DNA from: Eledone cirrhosa
Lineage: Eukaryota
Assembly: GCA_964016885.1 (NCBI GenBank)
Contig: OZ024740.1
Span: 303,304,001-303,368,000 of the forward strand
Direction of reading: 5' to 3'
Length of the DNA: 64,000 nt
Position 1 is the first letter of the stretch. Every line of letters begins with the position of its first letter. Of this stretch, positions 9,045-64,000 are shown one piece after another. The position numbers and the translations under genes are program-made. The notes under the pieces are model-generated. The model was not told where the DNA came from. It searched no databases and was given only the letters and a program-made list of their open reading frames with translations.

Positions 9045-9340
9045 TTAATTATTATTGTTATTATTATTGCACATTGTCACTGCTTTCCCGAGCACATATC
9101 TGTGCGCCTTAGGTATGAGCAGTGTAGTTTTTGCTGGTGTTGTTTCTATTGTATTAATAGTACCTTTCGTAGTATGTGTGCAGTGCCTTGTATGTTCTAC
9201 ATATTTGTAAGTCTTAGTGTTTTTGGTTATATATCTGTCTGCATGCTTTTTTTTATCATTCCGAGAGCACCTATTATTATAGATCTTGTTTCTGTTTTCA
9301 TTTTCCACATTCGAGTTATTTCTATCTCTAGATATTTATA
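9045..9340 (-). mobile_element. R4/Dong-like (RLE endonuclease) LINE 3' fragment, left half of an interrupted copy
   Basis: The minus strand reads YKYLEIEITRMWKMKTET..IIIGALGMIKK, followed by an (AAT)n tail. Confidence 0.8.
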
Positions 9341-10449
9341 CCAGATAGAAAAATGCATACAGCAAAAAAAAGTAATATTGTTGGAATATAAACCTTTAAA
9401 AATACAGGACAAGAAACTAAAATAAAACTTTAAAAGAATAGGACAAGAAACTGAGATAAAACTTTAAAAGAATAGGACAAGAAACTAAGATAAAACTTTA
9501 AAGAATTGGACAAGAAATAAAAAATTTTACAATAATATTAGTGGCAAAATTTTTATTGGTAAAAAATCGAGTTTCACATTCATAGGCTCTGGGTTCCACA
9601 TTCAGAGGTCGTCGTCAGACCGGGGGATCATTTGATCCTGGTTTGAACACCAATTGGGCCATAACCATACCCCTATTTCATCATTCGGCGACACGCCTCA
9701 TGTATCATGCATAATGTGAATGGACCCATGGGCCCATGAGCACAGATCTTGAGCAGCAGCGGACGGTCTTGTCGTCCCGCTCATCCTTGATCTTGACCAA
9801 CCCGTCCATCTTCTCCTTGCATCTTTTCCTTGAGTTCAAGTCCGGCAGTCCAGATGAATGCGTGCCACAGCTTTCTGGTACAGGAAGGGGGAGCAGGAGG
9901 ACTGGAGGGATGACGGGACAGAGGGAGGGAGGTGCCGTAGTCGGTGGTCAGAGTCGACATCTTGTCCTGGTCGTCTTCTCCATCTTCGTCTGGTGTTGCG
10001 GGACCAGAAGTGCATTCTTGGAGGAGACCTGCAGCTGCATCGGCCAATTCTTCTTGCAATGGTCATTCTGACGGAGTAGAACTGCTCAGCCAACCAACCC
10101 CAACCAGAACCAACCGCTCAGGGGCAACGCACAATGAGAGCATGACAATTATTATGCATTAATCAAGAAGATACTGGGGCATAGCACAGGAAACGAATAG
10201 AAAAATGTTGCCACTAATATTATTGTAAAATTTTTTATTTCTTGTCCAATTCTTTAAAGTTTTATCTTAGTTTCTTGTCCTATTCTTTTAAAGTTTTATC
10301 TTAGTTTCTTGTCCTATTCTTTTAAAGTTTTATCTTAGTTTCTTGTCCTATTCTTTTAAAGTTTTATTTTAGTTTCTTGTCCTGTATTTTTAAAGGTTTA
10401 TATTCCAACAATATTACTTTTTTTTGCTGTACGCATTTTTCTATCTGGT
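9340..10449. repeat. Long inverted repeat (arms 9340-9547 and 10208-10449) with 34-bp tandem subunits
   Basis: The arms are near-identical reverse complements. The right arm has one extra AGGACAAGAAACTAAGATAAAACTTTAAAAGAAT unit. Confidence 0.95.
9600..10143 (-). pseudogene. GC-rich degenerate coding-like segment of unknown function inside the inverted repeat
   Basis: Abrupt GC rise. ORF 9781-10059 has acidic and Pro/Ser-rich tracts, and the frame continues past single stops on both sides. An AATAAA lies on the minus strand at ~9553. Confidence 0.4.
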
Positions 10450-10721
10450 CTACTATTTTTAAGGCAATGCAAGCAACAACTATCTAATAATTAAATGATC
10501 ATAGTGAATTACTGACAAGTGATTGACATTTTAAAGTTCTTTTGAGTATGATTGCAATCTAGTTGAGGCAACGGGCTTAATGACAAAGCTAGTAAATCAT
10601 GAATGCATTTGAGATGATTAGTGCATAATAGTGAATTGGTGAAACTTGTGCATTTCAATGGTGTTACAACAATAGATGTAAGTTATATAGTAGTAATACT
10701 TTATCATTTTAACTTTTTAGA

Positions 10722-11081
10722 ATGGACAAAAACCCATGCAAAGAAATGACTTTGACTGCAGTGATTCTCTCCAATTTACTTACAAAGCAAAACGTGGTCA
10801 AATACCTTATCATCTCTGATAAAATGCCCATTGAATCACTGAAAATCGGATGCATGGAATTCCTCATAAAATGCACCTATGAATCGGAAGCCATCACATA
10901 TATCAATGGATATAGGGAGTTGTTCACACTGGAAGACCATCACTTCATTTGTGACTTCATCAGTTATCTCCACAATTATCTCAGACACCCAATGCCATTG
11001 ATGAGAGGTGATCCAATGTGTGAGCATGTAACTAATCTTATAGAAGTTGTTATCGACCACCTGGCTTTTAGTGACATTTGA
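10722..11081 (+). CDS. Hypothetical 119-aa protein (element cargo, no recognised family)
   Basis: Open ATG-TGA frame of normal complexity in AT-rich DNA, preceded by a pyrimidine tract and AG (TTTTAACTTTTTAG|AATG), a likely splice acceptor. Confidence 0.5.
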   Translation: MDKNPCKEMTLTAVILSNLLTKQNVVKYLIISDKMPIESLKIGCMEFLIKCTYESEAITYINGYRELFTLEDHHFICDFISYLHNYLRHPMPLMRGDPMCEHVTNLIEVVIDHLAFSDI

Positions 11082-11261
11082 CTGATTTGACTGATAATGA
11101 TGTATTTTTAAAAAGTATGTGTACATTCTTGTTACTATTTTAAGACAATGCAAGCAACAACTATTTAATAAAATTTTAATTTAAAAATGACCATTGTGCA
11201 TTACTAGTATGATGACATTTTATTAAGTCACAAAATTAGTCAGTCAGCCATAGAACAAGGA

Positions 11262-11933
11262 TCAGGTGGCAAAAACATTGGCAAAAATTTGTGTCAATTT
11301 AAGATTTCCAACATTGTTCAAATGAATCATATCTGGTTTGAAGTCAGATTTGTCAAATTTTGACCAATTTTCAATGTTGTGAAGATTGGGCAAGTTCAAT
11401 TTTTGAATCATTTCTTTCATGCAGTAATTAAACTTTTCCAAATGAGAATTTCTCTTGCCCAAGTCATTTTTATTTTCAATTACACTTTGTGGACGTGGAA
11501 TGACACCACTGTAGAAAATGGGTGTACAGTGGTGCTTTTCCGCTATTTTCTGTAGCCTTGCAAAGAGACTCTTCCCCTGTTTTTCCGGTTTTGTGCCTCG
11601 AATGGGCACTTTGTCCTTAATTTACAAATAAATGATTAATATAAAATACTTGGGCAAAAATTATTGTATTACTTTGCACAGCTTTGTAGTGCCAACGCTG
11701 CGACGAGGATTCAGATCATTAGAGCCGACATGAACCACCAATACTTTCACAAAAGAACAACAGATAACAATGTTGGCGATTAACATTACCTGGCCTTGAC
11801 GGGCCCCAGGTATACAAAATATCTAAGTATTTTTGTTGGTATGATAAGTAAATACATTTGAATTAATATTTTTATACCTTCTGGTCATTCTATTTCGCCA
11901 CATTTCTAATTATGGATTTGTAAAAACTGGCAT
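11262..11933 (-). pseudogene. Three-exon SGNH/GDSL-family hydrolase (esterase), disrupted in exon 1
   Basis: Exon 1 11933-11878 (MPVFT/x-SIIRNV; 1-nt frameshift and a TAG). GT-AG intron 11877-11823. Exon 2 11822-11673 (IFCIPGAR...VLVVHVGSNDL). GT-AG intron 11672-11616. Exon 3 11615-11262 (SGVIPR...DMIHLNNVG). Blocks I, II, III and V are in the SGNH order. Confidence 0.8.
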
Positions 11934-12585
11934 GAATGTGAATTTGATCAGTCCAATTGCCCGATTTTAGTGAAAAGTTTTGATTCGAAATGGAAATACT
12001 CCATTTCCGTGCCATGGAAAAAATGAATAAGCCGATCAAAAAGCCGCGAAACATCATTTTTAATTAAGCGAAATTAGTGGATGCAAATCTCAGAAAATAT
12101 TGTACACTATTCGCACCTATCGCACTATTCGCACCTATCGGTACAAAAAATCGCACGACTGTTAATAATACTAGAAGTGCAAACTATCTGTTGAATACCT
12201 GGTATATGAAGAGCAACCGATGCGATCGGTCTTGAAGAAGAATGAAGAATGAAGTGAAATTTTGGTCTGGTTGTTGTCATCGGTGTTTCGCAGAGATGCC
12301 GGCACGAACAAAGGTGTCAGTGACACAAAGTTGTCCGCTTGAACAAAGGTGTCGGTCCGACAAAGGTGTCAGTCAGACAGACAGTCAGACAGTGTCACAG
12401 TCGGTGCGACAAAGCGATCGATGCGACTAAAAAAAATTTACCTCACATGTTTACCTATATTTTCGCAAACTATTGATAGATTGGTACAAAAAATAGCTTT
12501 GATAATAAACATAAATTTTTAACGAAGTATTTAAAAAGCATTTTAGCAGGGAAAAGTGAAGTAATGTTTCACACTGACGCAAGTA

Positions 12586-12709
12586 GGGCCATTCAGAAAT
12601 GACGTAGTCAATTAGGAGGAGGGGATTCGGCGATTTGACTACATTTGACTAATGTAATCACAATCACAAGAGTTCCGCCGAAAAAAATTCGTCATTTCTG
12701 GATGACCCC
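12586..12709. mobile_element. Small MITE-like element (PIF/Harbinger-like TIRs) nested in the Helentron-like element
   Basis: GGGCCATTCAGAAATGACG ... CGTCATTTCTGGATGACCCC, flanked by GTA on both sides. Confidence 0.55.
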
Positions 12710-12995
12710 GTAGAGAGAGAGAGACTCGTAGAGAGAGACCTCCCCTAGCGTCACGCTTACTACTCACTCACTTGAACACAAGATTTATCAGCAAACTTTG
12801 ATTATAAACTTTTTCCCGCTGGACCAAATTTCTAGATTTTTAAGCCAAAAGATGCGTAATGATCTACTGTTCATGCTCATATAAGTTTTATCTCAGTTAA
12901 ATAAAGTAGAGCCGCGCTGTACTGTCGTAAACAGATGATTGCCAACGAAAACATGACTACAACAATATTACTAAACGGACTACCGTCCGTTTAGG

Positions 12996-13110
12996 ATTTG
13001 GAGAGTTTGTTTTTCTTTGTGGTCTTTGACTATATCTGGTCAGTTGGCCTTGATCTCTCTGTCTGTATGTATTGGAATATCCTAGAGAATGGTTGCTTTG
13101 TCATTCTCTG
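12996..13110 (-). mobile_element. R4/Dong-like LINE fragment, right half of the interrupted copy
   Basis: The minus strand reads ENDKATIL*DIPIHTDREIKAN*PDIVKDHKEK...KLSK, collinear with 9045-9340. Confidence 0.8.
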
Positions 13111-42608: not shown

Positions 42609-45600
42609 ACATGTTCTGGTGTGTGGTCATACCACTTCTTCACATGTTTTGGTGTGTGGTCATACCACTTCTTCACATGTTTTGGTGTGTGGTCATACCA
42701 CATCTTCACATGTTCTGGTGTGTGGTCATACCACTTCTTCACATGTTCTGGTGTGTGGTCATACCACATATTCACATGTTCTGGTGTGTGGTCATACCAC
42801 ATCTTCACATGTGCTGGTGTGTGGTCATACCACATCTTCACATGTTCTGGTGTGTGGTCATACCACATCTTCACATGTTCTGGTGTGTGGTCATACCACA
42901 TTTTCACATGTTTTGGTGTGTAGTCATACCATATCTTCACATGTTCTGGTGTATGGTCATACTACTTCTTCACATGTTTTGGTGTGTAGTCATACCACAT
43001 CTTCACATGTTCTGGTGTGTGGTCATACCACTTCTTCACATGTTTTGGTGTGTGGTCATACTACTTCTTCACATGTTTTGGTGTGTAGTCATACCACATC
43101 TTCACATGTTCTGGTGTGTGGTCATACCACATTTTCACATGTTTTGGTGTGTAGTCATACCATATCTTCACATGTTCTGGTGTATGGTCATACTACTTCT
43201 TCACATGTTTTGGTGTGTAGTCATACCACATCTTCACATGTTCTGGTGTGTGGTCATACCACTTCTTCACATGTTCTGGTGTATGGTCATACCACTTCTT
43301 CACATGTTTTGGTGTGTGGTCATACCACTTCTTCACATGTTCTGGTGTGTGGTCATACCACATCTTCACATGTTCTGGTGTGTGGTCATACCACATCTTC
43401 ACATGTTCTGGTGTGTGGTCATACCACATTTTCACATGTTTTGGTGTGTAGTCATACCACATCTTCACATGTTCTGGTGTGTGGTCATACCACTTCTTCA
43501 CATGTTCTGGTGTATGGTCATACCACTTCTTCACATGTTTTGGTGTGTGGTCATACCACTTCTTCACATGTTCTGGTGTGTGGTCATACCACATCTTCAC
43601 ATGTTCTGGTGTGTGGTCATACCACATTTTCACATGTTTTGGTGTGTAGTCATACCACATCTTCACATGTTCTGGTGTATGGTCATACTACTTCTTCACA
43701 TGTTTTGGTGTGTAGTCATACCACATCTTCACATGTTCTGGTGTGTGGTCATACCACTTCTTCACATGCTTTATGTGTGGTCATACCACTTCTTCACATG
43801 TTCTGGTGTGTGGTCATACCACTTCTTCACATGTTTTGGTGTGTGGTCATACATCTTCACATGTTCTGGTGTGTGGTCATACCACATTTTCACATGTTTT
43901 GGTGTGTAGTCATACCACATCTTCACATGTTCTGGTGTATGGTCATACTACTTCTTCACATGTTTTGGTGTGTAGACATACCACTTCTTCCCATGTTTTG
44001 GTGTGTGGTCATACCACTTCTTCACATGTTCTGGTGTATGGTCATACTATTTCTTCACATGTTTTGGTGTGTAGTCATACCACATCTTCACATGTTCTGG
44101 TGTGTGGTCATACCACTTCTTCATATGTTTTGGTGTGTGGTCATACCACTTCTTCACATGTTCTGGTGTGTGGTCATACCACTTCTTCACATGTTTTGGT
44201 GTGTGGTCATACCACATCTTCACATGTTCTGGTGTGTGGTCATACCACATTTTCACATGTTTTGGTGTGTAGTCATACCACATCTTCACATGTTCTGGTG
44301 TATGGTCATACTACTTCTTCACATGTTTTGGTGTGTAGACATACCACATCTTCACATGTTCTGGTGTGTGGTCATACCACATCTTCACATGTTCTGGTGT
44401 GTGGTCATACCACTTCTTCACATGTTTTGGTGTGTGGTCATACCACATCTTCACATGTTTTGGTGTGTGGTCACCACTTCTTCACATGTTCTGGTGTGTA
44501 GTCATACCACATCTTCACATGTTCTGGTGTGTGGTCATACCACTTCTTCACATGTTCTGGTGTGTGGTCATACCACTTCTTCACATGTTTTGGTGTGTGG
44601 TCATACCACTTCTTCACATGTTTTGGTGTGTGGTCATACCACATATTCACATATTCTGGTGTGTGGTCATACCACTTCTTCACATGTTTTGGTATGTGGT
44701 CATACTACTTCTTCACATGTTCTGGTGTGTGGTCATACCATATCTTCACATATTCTGGTGTGTGGTCATACCACATCTTCACATGTTTTGGTATGTGGTC
44801 ATACCACATCTTCACGTGTTTTGGTGTGTGGTCATACCACTTCTTCCCATGTTTTGGTGTGTGGTCATACCACATCTTCACATGTTTTGGTGTGTGGTCA
44901 TACCACTTCTTCCCATGTTTTGGTGTGTGGTCATACCACATCTTCACATGTTTTGGTGTGTGGTCATACTACTTCTTCACATGCTTTATGTGTGGTCATA
45001 CCACATCTTCACATGTTTTGGTGTGTGGTCATACCACTTCTTCACATGTTTTGGTGTGTGGTCATACCACATCTTCACATGTTTTGGTGTGTGGTCATAC
45101 CACTTCTTCACATGTTTTGGTGTGTGGTCATACTACTTCTTCACATGCTTTATGTGTGGTCATACCACTTCTTCACATGTTTTGGTGTGTGGTCATACCA
45201 CTTCTTCACATGTTCTGGTGTGTGGTCATACCACTTCTTCACATGTTCTGGTGTGTGGTCATACCACATTTTCACATGTTTTGGTGTGTGGTCATACTAC
45301 TTCTTCACATGCTTTATGTGTGGTCATACCACTTCTTCACATGTTTTGGTGTGTGGTCATACCACATCTTCACTTGTTTTGGTGTGTAGTCATACTACTT
45401 CTTCACATGTTCTGGTGTGTGGTCATACTACTTCTTCACATCTTTTGGTGTGTAGACATACCACATCTTCACATGTTCTGGTGTGTGGTCATACCACATG
45501 TTCTGGTGTGTGGTTATACTACGTCTTCACATGTTTTGGTGTGTGGTCATACCACATCTTCACATGTTCTGGTGTGTGGTTATACTACGTCTTCACATGT

Positions 45601-46750
45601 TCTGGTGTGTGGTCATACCACTTCTTCACATGTTTTGGTGTGTGGTCATACCACATATTCACATATTTTGGTGTGTGGTCATACCACTTCACATGCTTTG
45701 GTATGTGGTCATACCACTTCTTCACATGTTCTGGTGTGTGGTCATACCACATCTTCACATGTTCTGGTGTGTAGTCATACCACATCTTCACATGTTTTGG
45801 TGTGTGGTCATACCACTTCTTCACATGCTTTGGTATGTGGTCATACCACTTCTTCACATGTTCTGGTGTGTGGTCATACTACATCTTCACATGTTCTGGT
45901 GTGTGGTCATACCACATCTTCACATGTTCTGGTGTGTAGTCATACCACATCTTCACATGTTTTGGTGTGTGGTCATAACACTTCTTCACATGTTTTGGTA
46001 TGTGGTCATACCACATCTTCACATGTTTTGGTGTGTGGTCATACCACTTCTTCCCATGTTTTGGTGTGTGGTCATACCACTTCTTCACATGTTTTGGTGT
46101 CTGGTCATACTACTTCTTCACGTGCTTTGTGTGTAGTCATACCACTTCACATGTTTTGGTGTATGGTCATACCACATCTTCACATGTTTTGGTAGGTGGT
46201 CATACCACATCTTCACATGTTTTGGTGTGTGGTCATACCACTTCTTCACATGTTTTGGTGTGTGGTCATACCACATCTTCACATGTTTTGGTGTGTGGTC
46301 ATACTACTTCTTCACATGTTCTGGTGTGTGGTCATACCACATCTTCACATATTCTGGTGTGTGGTCATACTACTTCTTCACATGTTTTGGTGTGTGGTCA
46401 TACTACTTCTTCACGTGCTTTGTGTGTGGTCATACCACTTCTTCACATGTTTTGGTGTGTGGTCATACCACATCTTCACATGTTTTGGTGTGTGGTCATA
46501 CTACTTCTTCACATGTTCTGGTGTGTGGTCATACCACATCTTCACATGTTCTGGTGTGTGGTCATACCACTTCTTCACATGTTCTGGTGTGTGGTCATAC
46601 TACTTCTTCACATGTTTTGATGTGTGGTCATACCACATCTTCACATGTTCTGGTGTGTGGTTATACTATGTCTTCACATGTTCTGGTGTGTGGTTATACT
46701 ACGTCTTCACATGTTCTGGTGCGTGGTTATACTACGTCTTCACGTGTTCA
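42609..46750. repeat. 33-bp minisatellite array, ~125 units (CACATGTTYTGGTGTGTGGTCATACCACWTCTT)
   Basis: 11-aa periodicity in all frames (CGHTTSSHVLV, MFWCVVIPHLH). Confidence 0.98.
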
Positions 46751-59045: not shown

Positions 59046-59634
59046 ACTGTAATATAATAATGATTACTGATTTAGGCACAAAGCCAACAATTTGGGTGGG
59101 GGTAGGGGAAAGTCGATCAAGCCCAGTGTGTTACTGGTGCTTATTCTTATAGTAATACCATCTCCAATATAAGTAGTAGTAGTAGTAATTTTCATACATA
59201 ATGATTTTAAATTTAGACACAATACCATAGATTTGAGGGGAGGAAAGTCGATTATTCAACCCCCAGTACTTTACTGGTACTTTATTTTATTGACCACGGA
59301 AGGATGAAATGCAAAGTTGACCTCGGTGAGCCTTGACCTCAGAATGAAAAGAGCCAAAACAAATACTGCAATAGTATTTTATCTGATGCCCTAGTAACAC
59401 TCAAGGGGGTGGAGGTCAACTTTGCCTTTCATTCTTTCGGGGTTGATAATAAAAAGTACCAGTTTAGTACTGGGCTTCATTCTTCCTCTATATATCTTTC
59501 TCCACTTCCTTTCTCTCAGTATTTATCCTTCTCTGGAAGAAATCTACTCTATTCAGATCTGGAGAGATGGGCTCCGTCAGGTTTATAAATGCCCTAGAAA
59601 CGCTGTATGTCAATATGACACTCCTATGACTCAC

Positions 59635-61280
59635 AGTGTTGTAGTAATAACAACAATGTTGTAGTAATAACAAGTGTTGTAGTAATAACAACAACAGTTG
59701 TAATAATAACAACAGTGTTGTAGTAATAACAACAACAGTTGTAGTAATAACAACAGTGTTGTAGTAATAACAACAATGTTGTAGTAATAACAAGTGTTGT
59801 AGTAATAACAACAACAGTTGTAATAATAACAACAGTGTTGTAGTAATAACAACAACAGTTGTAATAATAACAACAGTGTTGTAGTAATAACAACAACAGT
59901 TGTAGTAATAACAACAGTGTTGTAGTAATAACAAGTGTTGTAGTAATAACAACAATGTTGTAGTAATAACAACAGTGCTGTAGTAATAACAACAATGTTG
60001 TAGTAATAACAAGTGTTGTAGTAATAACAAGTGCTGTAGTAATAACAACAATGTTGTAGTAATAACAACAGTGCTGTAGTAATAACAACAGTGTTGTAGT
60101 AATAACAACAATGTTGTAGTAATAACAGCAGTGTTGTAGTAATAAGTGCTGTAATAACAGCAGTGTTGTAGTAATAAGTGCTGTAATAACAACAGTGTTG
60201 TAGTAATAAAAACAGTGTTGTAGTAATAAAAACAGTGTTGTAGTAATAACAACAATGTTGTAGTAATAAGTGTTGTAGCAATAACAACAATGTTGTAATA
60301 ATAACAACAATGTTGTAGTAACAACAATGTTGTAGAAATAACAAAGGTGTTGTAGTAATAACAAGTGTTGTAGTAATAACAACAGTGTTGTAGTATTAAC
60401 AACAGTGTTGTAGTAATAACAACAGTGTTGTAGTAATAACAACAATGTTGTAGTAATAACAAGTGTTGTAGTAATAACAAGTGCTGTAGTAATAACAACA
60501 ATGTTGTAGTAATAACAACAGTGCTGTAGTAATAACAACAGTGTTGTAGTAATAACAACAATGTTGTAGTAATAACAGCAGTGTTGTAGTAATAAGTGCT
60601 GTAATAACAACAGTGTTGTAGTAATAAAAACAGTGTTGTAGTAATAACAACAATGTTGTAGTAATAAGTGTTGTAGTAATAACAACAATGTTGTAGTAAT
60701 AAGTGTTGTAGCAATAACAACAATGTTGTAATAATAACAACAATGTTGTAGTAACAACAATGTTGTAGAAATAACAAAGGTGTTGTAGTAATAACAAGTG
60801 TTGTAGTAATAACAACAGTGTTGTAGTATTAACAACAGTGTTGTAGTAATAACAACAGTGTTGTAGTAATAACAACAGTGTTGTAGTAATAACAACAGTG
60901 TTGTAGTATTAACAACAGTGTTGTAGTATTAACAACAGTGTTGTAGTATTAACAACGGTGTTGTAGTATTAACAACAGTGTTGTAGTATTAACAACGGTG
61001 TTGTAGTAATAACAATGGTGTTGTAGTAATAACAGTGTTGTAGTAATAACAACAGTGTTGTAGTAATAACAACAGTGTTGTAGTAATAACAACAGTGTTG
61101 TAGTAATAACAGTGTTGTAGTAATAACAACGGTGTTTTAATAACAATGGTGTTGTAGTAATAACAACAATGTAGTAATAACAGTGTTGTAGTAACAACAA
61201 CGGTGTTGTAATAACAACGGAGTTGTAGTAACAACGGAGTTGTAATAATAACAACAGTGTAGTAACAACAGCAGTGTTAT
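59635..61280. repeat. Degenerate ~17-23-bp satellite (GTGTTGTAGTAATAACAACA)n
   Basis: Tandem array; it explains the low-complexity ORFs at 59488-61254. Confidence 0.97.
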
Positions 61281-63399: not shown

Positions 63400-63575
63400 A
63401 ATGGTTTCCAATTTAGGGACAAGGTTAACGATTATAATGACACAAGTATTAGATTGGTACTTTATTTTATCAACCCTGGAAGGTAATGTTGGCCATGGTG
63501 AGGCTTGGACTCTGAACATAAGGAACTGGAACAAATACCACAAAGCATTTTATCTGTGGCTCTACTAATTCTCCA
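63400..63575 (-). mobile_element. SINE family A, diverged copy leading into a satellite
   Basis: GGTACTTTATTTTATCAACCCTGGAAGG... and a degenerate 5' head. Confidence 0.6.
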
Positions 63576-64000
63576 ATCCAACACTCTTCTGCCAATCCAA
63601 TACTCTTATTCCAATCCAACACTCTTCTGCCAATCCAACACTCTTCTGCCAATCCAATACTCTTATTCCAATCCAACACTCTTCTGCCAATCCAACACTC
63701 TTCTGCCAATCCAACACTCTTCTACCAATCCAACGCTCTTCTGCCAATCCAACGCTCTTCTGCCAATCCAATGCTCTTCTGCCAATCCAACGCTCTTCTG
63801 CCAATCCAACGCTCTTCTGCCAATCCAACGCTCTTCTGCCAATCCAACGCTCTTCTGCCAATCCAACGCTCTTCTGCCAATCCAATGCTCTTCTGCCAAT
63901 CCAACGCTCTTCTGCTAATCCAACACTCTTCTGCCAATCCAACGCTCTTCTGCCAATCCAACGCTCTTCTGCCAATCCAACGCTCTTCTGCCAATCCAAC
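63571..64000. repeat. 19-bp satellite (TCCAACGCTCTTCTGCCAA)n, running off the window end
   Basis: 19-aa periodicity (3 x 19 nt) in the ORF track. Confidence 0.97.

Follow-up and report, generated by a model that had tools for sequence, protein, structure and literature searches.

The DNA analysed here (the window) is a stretch of 64,000 nucleotides from Eledone cirrhosa (GenBank assembly GCA_964016885.1, contig OZ024740.1, positions 303,304,001 to 303,368,000 of the forward strand). Near its beginning, a fragment of a long interspersed nuclear element (LINE) is interrupted within the peptide KLSK/YKYLEIE by a block of 3,656 bp, which proved to be a non-autonomous Helitron, with an organization summarized in Table 1. 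The host LINE, which we take to be of the R4/Dong type, has a paralogous copy (L175) that carries reverse-transcriptase open reading frames (ORFs; Pfam RVT_1). An initial annotation had described the split and the lack of a target-site duplication (TSD), and had proposed a comparison with empty sites. This comparison, run on paralogous LINE copies, agrees with it: the LINE flanks are contiguous in 20 of 24 copies, at a spacing that implies neither duplication nor loss, while two of the other four lack an anchor and two are not measurable. The left boundary, formerly placed at 9340, was moved to 9341 because 9340 is the target base. The best register thus runs from 9341 to 12996 on the minus strand, with TC...CTGG at A^T; since T is both the first base of the element and the base that comes after it, CC...CTGGT after AT is a register that also fits and may apply instead. 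Compared with its paralogues, the host LINE copy has an internal deletion of its own, some 13 nt away from the insertion (12997–13010).

Table 1. Features of the insertion and its flanks (window coordinates; 5' and 3' follow the minus-strand reading).
Feature	Position	Strand	Remarks
Host LINE fragment downstream of the insertion, outside the element	9045–9340	-	
Whole non-autonomous element, 5'-TC...CTGG-3', between A and T	9341–12996	-	3,656 bp; internal deletion derivative of a 12,628-bp RepHel element (G000:C28, L141/L142)
Outer arm of foldback = 3' terminus, CTGG-3'	9341–9554	-	34-bp array 9388–9517; 3' subTIR 9371–9383, 30 nt from end; no stable hairpin
GC-rich spacer of foldback	9555–10200		No supported gene; unrelated sequence in sister family
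Inner arm of foldback: inverted copy of 3' terminus	10201–10448	+	34-bp array 10238–10401; third subTIR copy 10406–10418
119-aa ORF behind an AG acceptor	10722–11081	+	Between 34-bp direct repeats 10457–10490 and 11138–11171
Rear half of the parent's NADAR-SGNH gene	11262–11912	-	Exon pieces 11912–11878, 11822–11673, 11615–11262; GT-AG introns of 55 and 57 nt
First codons of the parent's RepHel frame	11913–12057	-	Deletion junction 11913/11912
5' non-coding region common to the parent	12058–12959	-	Short tandem repeats 12105–12140 and 12308–12379
5' subterminal inverted repeat, 13 bp	12960–12972	-	Overlaps the hairpin's distal arm by 2 nt; identical in sister family
5'-terminal hairpin	12971–12994	-	10-bp stem, 4-nt loop, 2 nt from end
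Host LINE fragment upstream of the insertion, outside the element	12997–13110	-	

On the minus strand, the element reads as a 5'-terminal hairpin, a 13-bp subterminal inverted repeat (subTIR) near each end and an array of 34-bp repeats next to the 3' copy. The perfect 10-bp-stem hairpin, the perfect inverted motif at 9371–9383 and 12960–12972 and the tandem repeats after the left end had been noted before, and all three hold. The hairpin is more stable than shuffled sequences (z = -5.2; 0 of 200 shuffles), an inverted match of 13 bp was attained in 0 of 2000 shuffles, and the array is found where it had been reported. No 3' hairpin was detected, as the 3' ends of this family and of the sister family described below fold no better than shuffles. 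In the end counts, where a few loci are entered twice, A precedes all 61 5' ends and T follows 44 of 45 3' ends on the minus-strand reading. The 45 complete copies invariably begin with TCC, and end with CTGG (39), CTGA (3), CTAG (2) or otherwise (1). The predicted absence of TSDs at the A^T target extends to these copies: suffix-prefix matches of 2–10 nt are seen at 29 of the 45 junctions, variable in length and mostly in TA-rich flanks, and 16 have none. The non-coding region inside the 5' subTIR presumably contains promoter and untranslated sequence. At one locus (G000:C18:12.53–12.55 Mb, L137/L138) a micro-inversion at the palindrome has inverted the 5' hairpin loop.

The element belongs to a large family. 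A whole-block search of the 3.0-Gb genome returned 27 further copies of 3.2–3.7 kb at 93–96% identity (best 38 of 822 candidates scored), and 12 aligned copies differ by 1.7% in substitutions; the family is a young burst. The exact 38-nt hairpin end preceded by A occurs at least 285 times, with none in the control, and two exact 31-nt ends are preceded by a base other than A, neither being a head-to-tail junction. Internally deleted copies number in the hundreds, the insert being one of them, and many contain both ends, as the initial annotation had anticipated. A sister family (C13, C10; 11.2 kb) begins with TC, ends with CTAG, sits at A^T and has the same subTIR; one stem pair of its hairpin is changed on both sides. 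A second, internal 5' end is present in L109, L110 and at C2:22.18 Mb.

Longer copies with the same ends that encode a Rep/helicase transposase (RepHel), which the initial annotation had suggested looking for, were found. The copy on C28 measures 12,628 bp from TC to CTGG and consists of window 12996–11902, RepHel-UCH, 2.6 kb absent from the window, and window 11916–9341. The window copy is this parent after a single 9-kb deletion, which brought the initial RepHel codons next to an SGNH exon; the family has at least eight further deletion junctions. The description of the copy as devoid of Rep/helicase is therefore correct for the domain, but overlooks the start of the parent's RepHel frame at 11913–12057. 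A DNA search with RepHel gave ten full-length copies at 97–100% identity (query included) and two at 85–88% (best 40 of 134 candidates scored). Of 40 hairpin ends retrieved by position, two enclose RepHel. An origin from a Polinton, a Crypton or a terminal-inverted-repeat (TIR) transposon was rejected, given that the parent encodes RepHel and that no TSD is present.

The parental RepHel contains the Pfam domains DUF6570, Helitron_like_N, PIF1, Pif1_2B, UvrD_C_2 and UCH. The motifs HIH and YxxxY (HUH and two tyrosines) are read in its sequence together with the Pif1 helicase, as expected of the HLE2 clade. DUF6570 is matched with an E-value of 9e-18, and the aromatic-x-R signature before ExQxRG is present as YFWRLEYQQRGAPHIH, in which A takes the place of the S of Helentrons. 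In both families the RepHel frame ends in UCH, and Pfam scans of it found no endonuclease domain; the parent is therefore not a strict Helentron. Among 46 RepHel homologues, a set that includes neither HelenPi572 nor FoHeli3-5, DUF6570 is found in 44, UCH in 15 and an endonuclease in five. A tree of 49 Rep regions, built without Phytophthora and Fusarium proteins, separates the family from the four HLE1 Reps in it (100/100) as well as from the five endonuclease-bearing Helentrons (95/99). Between the two families, the ratio of nonsynonymous to synonymous substitution rates (dN/dS) is 0.12–0.28 for RepHel, with dS of 0.26–0.5, and 0.40–0.55 for UCH in the two copies holding it whole; RepHel is under purifying selection. 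The element thus unites canonical Helitron junction letters, an HLE2 transposase and a hairpin at the 5' end. The closest homologue, P0001 (45%), carries the label of a Gammaproteobacteria metagenome-assembled genome, the bin of which probably contained DNA of the host animal.

A third, decayed RepHel-UCH family is represented by copies at G000:C1:266.2 Mb and C2:271.8 Mb (L151/L152, L163/L164) with 66–68% DNA identity; the termini of these two older copies are too decayed to be defined. In relatives, similar ends were sought in 80 metagenome loci, where pairwise comparison of those of at least 4 kb defined no termini. A strict hairpin-plus-repeat scan of 34 long metagenome loci gave no match while recovering both families described here, although the contigs may stop short of the ends.

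We conclude, with a probability of about 0.88, that the window element is a non-coding derivative, shortened by internal deletion, of a 12.6-kb HLE2-clade Helitron of the same genome with the layout 5'-TC/hairpin/subTIR, subTIR/CTGG-3' at A^T, likely copied in trans by the parent's RepHel via a single-stranded rolling-circle intermediate. The minus strand is read as the sense of the element, with the hairpin at the 5' end, because RepHel runs away from the hairpin and the sister family ends in CTAG. Several observations weigh against this interpretation. The A^T target is symmetric, so that polarity rests on the RepHel direction and the TC/CTRR match, and HLE2 elements with an inverted RepHel frame have been described (PMC4067079, PMC5148889). 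Nor do the RepHel copies support the polarity independently, as precise 5' ends are missing about as frequently as precise 3' ends. Head-to-tail junctions, the trace of circles or tandems, are absent from the collected loci, as they are from the listed contigs of four DNA runs covering the element. A 10.3-kb copy (C12:22.46–22.47 Mb, L161/L162) has two 3' ends and no hairpin end, and a 1.4-kb copy (L036) has hairpin ends on both sides; self-insertion can yield copies with doubled ends (PMC5148889). The composition of the tree is a further weakness, and present activity is called into question by the RepHel frame, which is unbroken in none of 12 copies (the best reads 1,904 aa, one stop and 507 aa).

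If the plus strand were the sense strand, the block would be a HINE/DINE-1-type element with a 3' subTIR and stem-loop, and its parent would carry an inverted RepHel like Helentron-Da-40. The succession of subTIR and stem-loop at one end matches the DINE-1 scheme, and inverted RepHel frames are on record (PMC4067079). However, the 5' subTIR would lie 30 nt from the end (2–4 nt in HINEs) and the stem-loop 2 nt from the end (8–35 nt in HINEs), the target is A^T instead of T^T, and the ends would read CC/CT...GA, whereas the minus strand gives TC...CTGG/CTAG. Plus-strand polarity is accordingly improbable. The earlier designation as a Helentron/HINE-like rolling-circle element is appropriate in that the copy is non-autonomous, falls in the HLE2 clade (Helitron2/Helentron) and has subTIRs, a hairpin and no TSD. 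Its minus-strand polarity, 5' hairpin and A^T target, and the lack of a detected endonuclease, make it neither a HINE nor a strict Helentron. The minus-strand TC...CTGG at A^T had also been recognized, with the hairpin said to be at the wrong end; it is the 5' hairpin of the layout named HLE2-reverse.

The element shares with canonical Helitrons (HLE1), such as Helraiser, the 5'-TC, CTRR-3', the A^T target and the absence of TSDs; unlike these, it has no hairpin 10–12 nt before CTRR, contains subTIRs and a 5' hairpin, and has a transposase outside HLE1 (PMC4778049). With Helentrons and HINE/DINE-1 it has in common the HLE2 clade, 13-bp subTIRs, tandem repeats and many non-autonomous derivatives, and it differs from them in the A^T rather than T^T target, the 5' hairpin and the absence of a detected endonuclease domain (PMC4067079). 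Short asymmetric subTIRs, 13 bp in both families, are an HLE2 trait, but the T^T target and 3' stem-loop of usual HLE2 elements are missing, as is the strict Helentron/HINE geometry (5' subTIR 2–4 nt from the end, 3' palindrome at 8–35 nt, flanking Ts). Proto-Helentron-Pi/HelenPi572 of Phytophthora infestans has the same combination of an HLE2-type RepHel without endonuclease, A^T, no TSD, a 5' stem-loop and subTIRs of ~12 nt (PMC4067079; PMC11417382), and its 3' CTAG is that of the sister family, the window family having CTGG (PMC4067079). In the sections of those reports that were available, it differs in its 5' TT (TC in 45 of 45 complete copies here; PMC4067079), in a 5' subTIR 3.6 kb from the stem-loop that it abuts here, and in a SET/TIR cargo, compared with UCH, NADAR-SGNH and a 3' foldback here, in an animal host.

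The HLE2-reverse elements FoHeli3/4/5 of Fusarium oxysporum also have DUF6570 and a hairpin at the 5' end, ahead of the left inverted repeat, and lack a 3' hairpin (PMC5148889; PMC11417382), together with a 13–16-bp repeat 20–40 bp from the 3' end and a size of 9–11 kb (PMC5148889). Their ends are TGCCT...CTCCTGT, with no target established in the available part of that report, in contrast to TC...CTRG at a strict A^T here (PMC5148889). The HELIANO study, in its accessible sections, gives the 5'-hairpin layout of FoHeli3-5 the name HLE2-reverse and likens it to the Phytophthora proto-Helentron, finds nothing resembling the latter in 404 genomes, and tabulates five HLE2 copies for Octopus sinensis without description (PMC11417382). 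An animal element of this layout is not described in the literature searched; Repbase and Dfam lay outside that search and may hold the family.

The CTGG end contains a structure unmentioned in the initial annotation. The segment 9341–9554 recurs inverted at 10201–10448 (98% identity over 166 nt), forming a 1.1-kb foldback whose arms contain different numbers of 34-bp repeats (3.9 versus 4.9). Of 812 exact arm ends in the whole genome, 393 belong to inner arms. Both arms are present at 29 of the 40 hairpin-fetched ends; four are without a whole inner arm, and seven are without a normal 3' end. All deletion classes seen in more than one copy retain both arms. In the smallest class (1.5 kb, ~15 copies) the break lies 140 nt short of the inner arm, and five breakpoints of independent origin fall within the 330 nt preceding it. 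The sister family has a foldback at the same position, with its own arms and an unrelated spacer. Arm identity is 98–100% within a family (100/100 in the sister) and 88–90% between families (87–88/98 from the sister to the first family), and the arms evolve in concert. Among the arm variants in 71 copies, 35 are private to the inner arm, 29 to the outer arm and two are shared; arm-private variants and unequal repeat numbers argue against wholesale recopying, and occasional recombination suffices. The sister-family spacer (L148:3371–3985) contains a 205-aa frame with a PHD-like Cys/His pattern, a coiled-coil-like end and no Pfam match, which we presume to be reminiscent of a LINE ORF1. No donor of the foldback spacers was found in 1.95 Mb of collected sequence.

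Because of its long inverted arms and internal tandem repeats, the structure resembles a foldback transposon, and might be a separate, self-mobile TIR or miniature inverted-repeat element that jumped into the Helitron end. However, none of 106 rows (with some loci entered more than once) shows it on its own, and this holds for 30 of 30 loci among them that were selected by their spacer only; it also has no TSD. Its outer arm coincides with the terminus of the Helitron, subTIR included, and the arms track the Helitron family. Independent mobility was rejected, and such an origin is very improbable. The spacer is flipped in two of the 106 rows. Most likely, the foldback has a single origin that predates the divergence of the two families, through an inverted self-insertion or a template switch, and its arms are probably kept alike by occasional recombination.

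To our knowledge, how HLE2 Helitrons start and stop has had no experimental test to date. As far as can be inferred, the family would work like other Helitrons. In Helraiser, the 5'-TC end is required, the 3' hairpin is the terminator, circles are formed and insertion occurs at AT (PMC4778049). By analogy with this bat element, the HUH/two-tyrosine domain would nick at A^TC, the Pif1 helicase would peel off one strand, and a second nick after CTGG would end the strand, which would be joined into an A^T site. The cargo of the window copy is a passenger. For Helitron2, Bao and Jurka proposed that the stop signal is the pairing of two asymmetric repeats (PMC3627910). Without a 3' hairpin, the 3' subTIR could likewise pair with a partner, either the 5' subTIR or the copy in the inner arm.

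A tentative possibility is that the foldback itself is functional. The displaced outer arm would snap onto the inner one, and the resulting 1.1-kb panhandle, flush with CTGG-3', would serve as terminator or second-strand primer. The retention of both arms in all multi-copy deletion classes, the pile-up of breakpoints just before the inner arm, the genome-wide share of inner arms and the equivalent structure in the sister family are consistent with such a role, as is the lack of a stable 3' hairpin in either family. Nevertheless, precise ends without a whole inner arm exist in the four hairpin-fetched copies mentioned above, and in L039 and C1_73. Since each copy without inner arm has its own junction, loss before insertion is indistinguishable from loss after it. 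Also unfavourable are the differing repeat numbers and arm-private variants, and the FoHeli3-5 elements, for which the available part of PMC5148889 reports no such foldback despite the absence of a 3' hairpin.

The parent's SGNH gene consists of five exons, with borders read from sequence, and four GT-AG introns (54, 213, 55 and 57 nt); a 335-aa NADAR-SGNH frame is open in one of the three copies holding the gene whole. The SGNH blocks GDS, G, GxND and DxxH are all read in the parent gene, with N for D in the last block of one intact-frame copy. The Pfam match (E 0.0028) is below the cut-off, and language-model atlas neighbours carry Lipase_GDSL; the last exon has no homologue among 1.84 billion representatives and none in the PDB. 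Scanned exon by exon, three consecutive exons match the NADAR profile (YbiA/DUF1768) in order at 4–67, 81–116 and 120–162, each below the cut-off (E 0.005, 0.047 and 0.02). A two-exon genomic match reached E 6e-4, and the only two NADAR matches in the genome (four candidates) are the parents; for exon 1, there was no homologue among longer proteins or in the PDB. In the window copy, the NADAR domain and the G-D of the GDS motif are deleted, SGNH block I being cut, and a stop at 11890–11892 is private, absent from the other 11 aligned copies.

The cargo is inherited from the parent and does not represent three compact genes, as had been proposed. The SGNH unit is real, but is 5'-truncated and contains a stop. 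The 119-aa ORF is open and without homologue among near-length proteins or match in the PDB; its AlphaFold model is unusable (pLDDT 39), and atlas matches to BTB/BACK clusters at 0.88–0.91, from language-model features, provide a lead to a BTB/BACK-like protein. The GC-rich ORF is unsupported, with no Pfam match and frameshifts in 23 of 79 copies. Synonymous fractions in five cargo regions (0.19–0.30, against 0.23–0.27 expected) indicate neutrality, which is expected for dead copies and hence uninformative about the parent. The cargo had further been considered foreign to described Helentrons. SGNH genes with Helitrons are already in print, as the platyfish texim genes beside fish Helitrons, to which the intron-bearing gene reported here is similar in its association (PMC4021074). 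SGNH is also found on one Helentron protein among the 46 homologues (P0040), to which no similarity was detected. NADAR is carried by the transposons Ectocarpus Gypsy and oyster Tx1, in the latter in ORF1, while here NADAR and SGNH form one Helitron gene (PMC12477816); no NADAR in a Helitron was found in the literature searched or in the part of the HELIANO supplement available (PMC11417382). As NADAR reverses guanine ADP-ribosylation of single-stranded DNA (PMC11543638), one may speculate that NADAR-SGNH protects the single-stranded intermediate.

Both families retain LLIIGCVELNPGP about 90 codons into RepHel, a sequence similar to the StopGo motif DxExNPGP except that C replaces D. This 2A/StopGo-like peptide, a hydrophobic run followed by CVELNPGP, is identical in both families (L112:1705–3450; L147:3450–9161). 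The frame upstream of it has a dN/dS of 0.30–0.39 in three of four comparisons, and the canonical motif occurs in one of the 46 homologues. No StopGo/2A in a Helitron is named in the literature searched, including the available part of PMC12846837. A wider proposal, which we consider doubtful, would combine these features in an HLE2 animal lineage with TC...CTRR at A^T. In it, a 1.1-kb panhandle with self-homogenising arms replaces the 3' terminator, stopping the helicase or priming the second strand, its loop is an exchangeable cargo slot, NADAR-SGNH could free the single-stranded intermediate of ADP-ribose, and RepHel is preceded by a 2A-like recoding peptide.

Apart from the element, the window contains long minisatellite arrays at 42609–46748, 59633–61264 and 63569–64000, with units of 33, 20 and 19 bp. 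Elsewhere in the genome (G000:C16, C19, C20, C27; L043–L070), near-identical HLE1 Rep copies recur every 110–130 kb in one orientation, which suggests large tandem repeats containing a Helitron.

The combination of canonical junctions, HLE2-reverse layout, conserved 3' foldback and NADAR-SGNH gene in an animal is new. As judged from its sequence, the end layout matches one described so far from fungi and oomycetes only; the proto-Helentron layout, thought to be confined to Phytophthora, is now represented by a young, high-copy animal family. Canonical junctions with a 5' hairpin and no 3' hairpin uncouple end structure from transposase clade. The family would be overlooked or put in the wrong orientation by annotation tools that rely on a T^T target or on a 3' hairpin preceding CTRR. 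The ladder of deletion derivatives maps the sequence needed in cis to ~250 nt at the 5' end and ~1.2 kb at the 3' end, as defined by the amplified classes. Should the foldback or the NADAR gene prove functional, the known biology of Helitrons would be extended by a new termination signal and a possible counter-defence.

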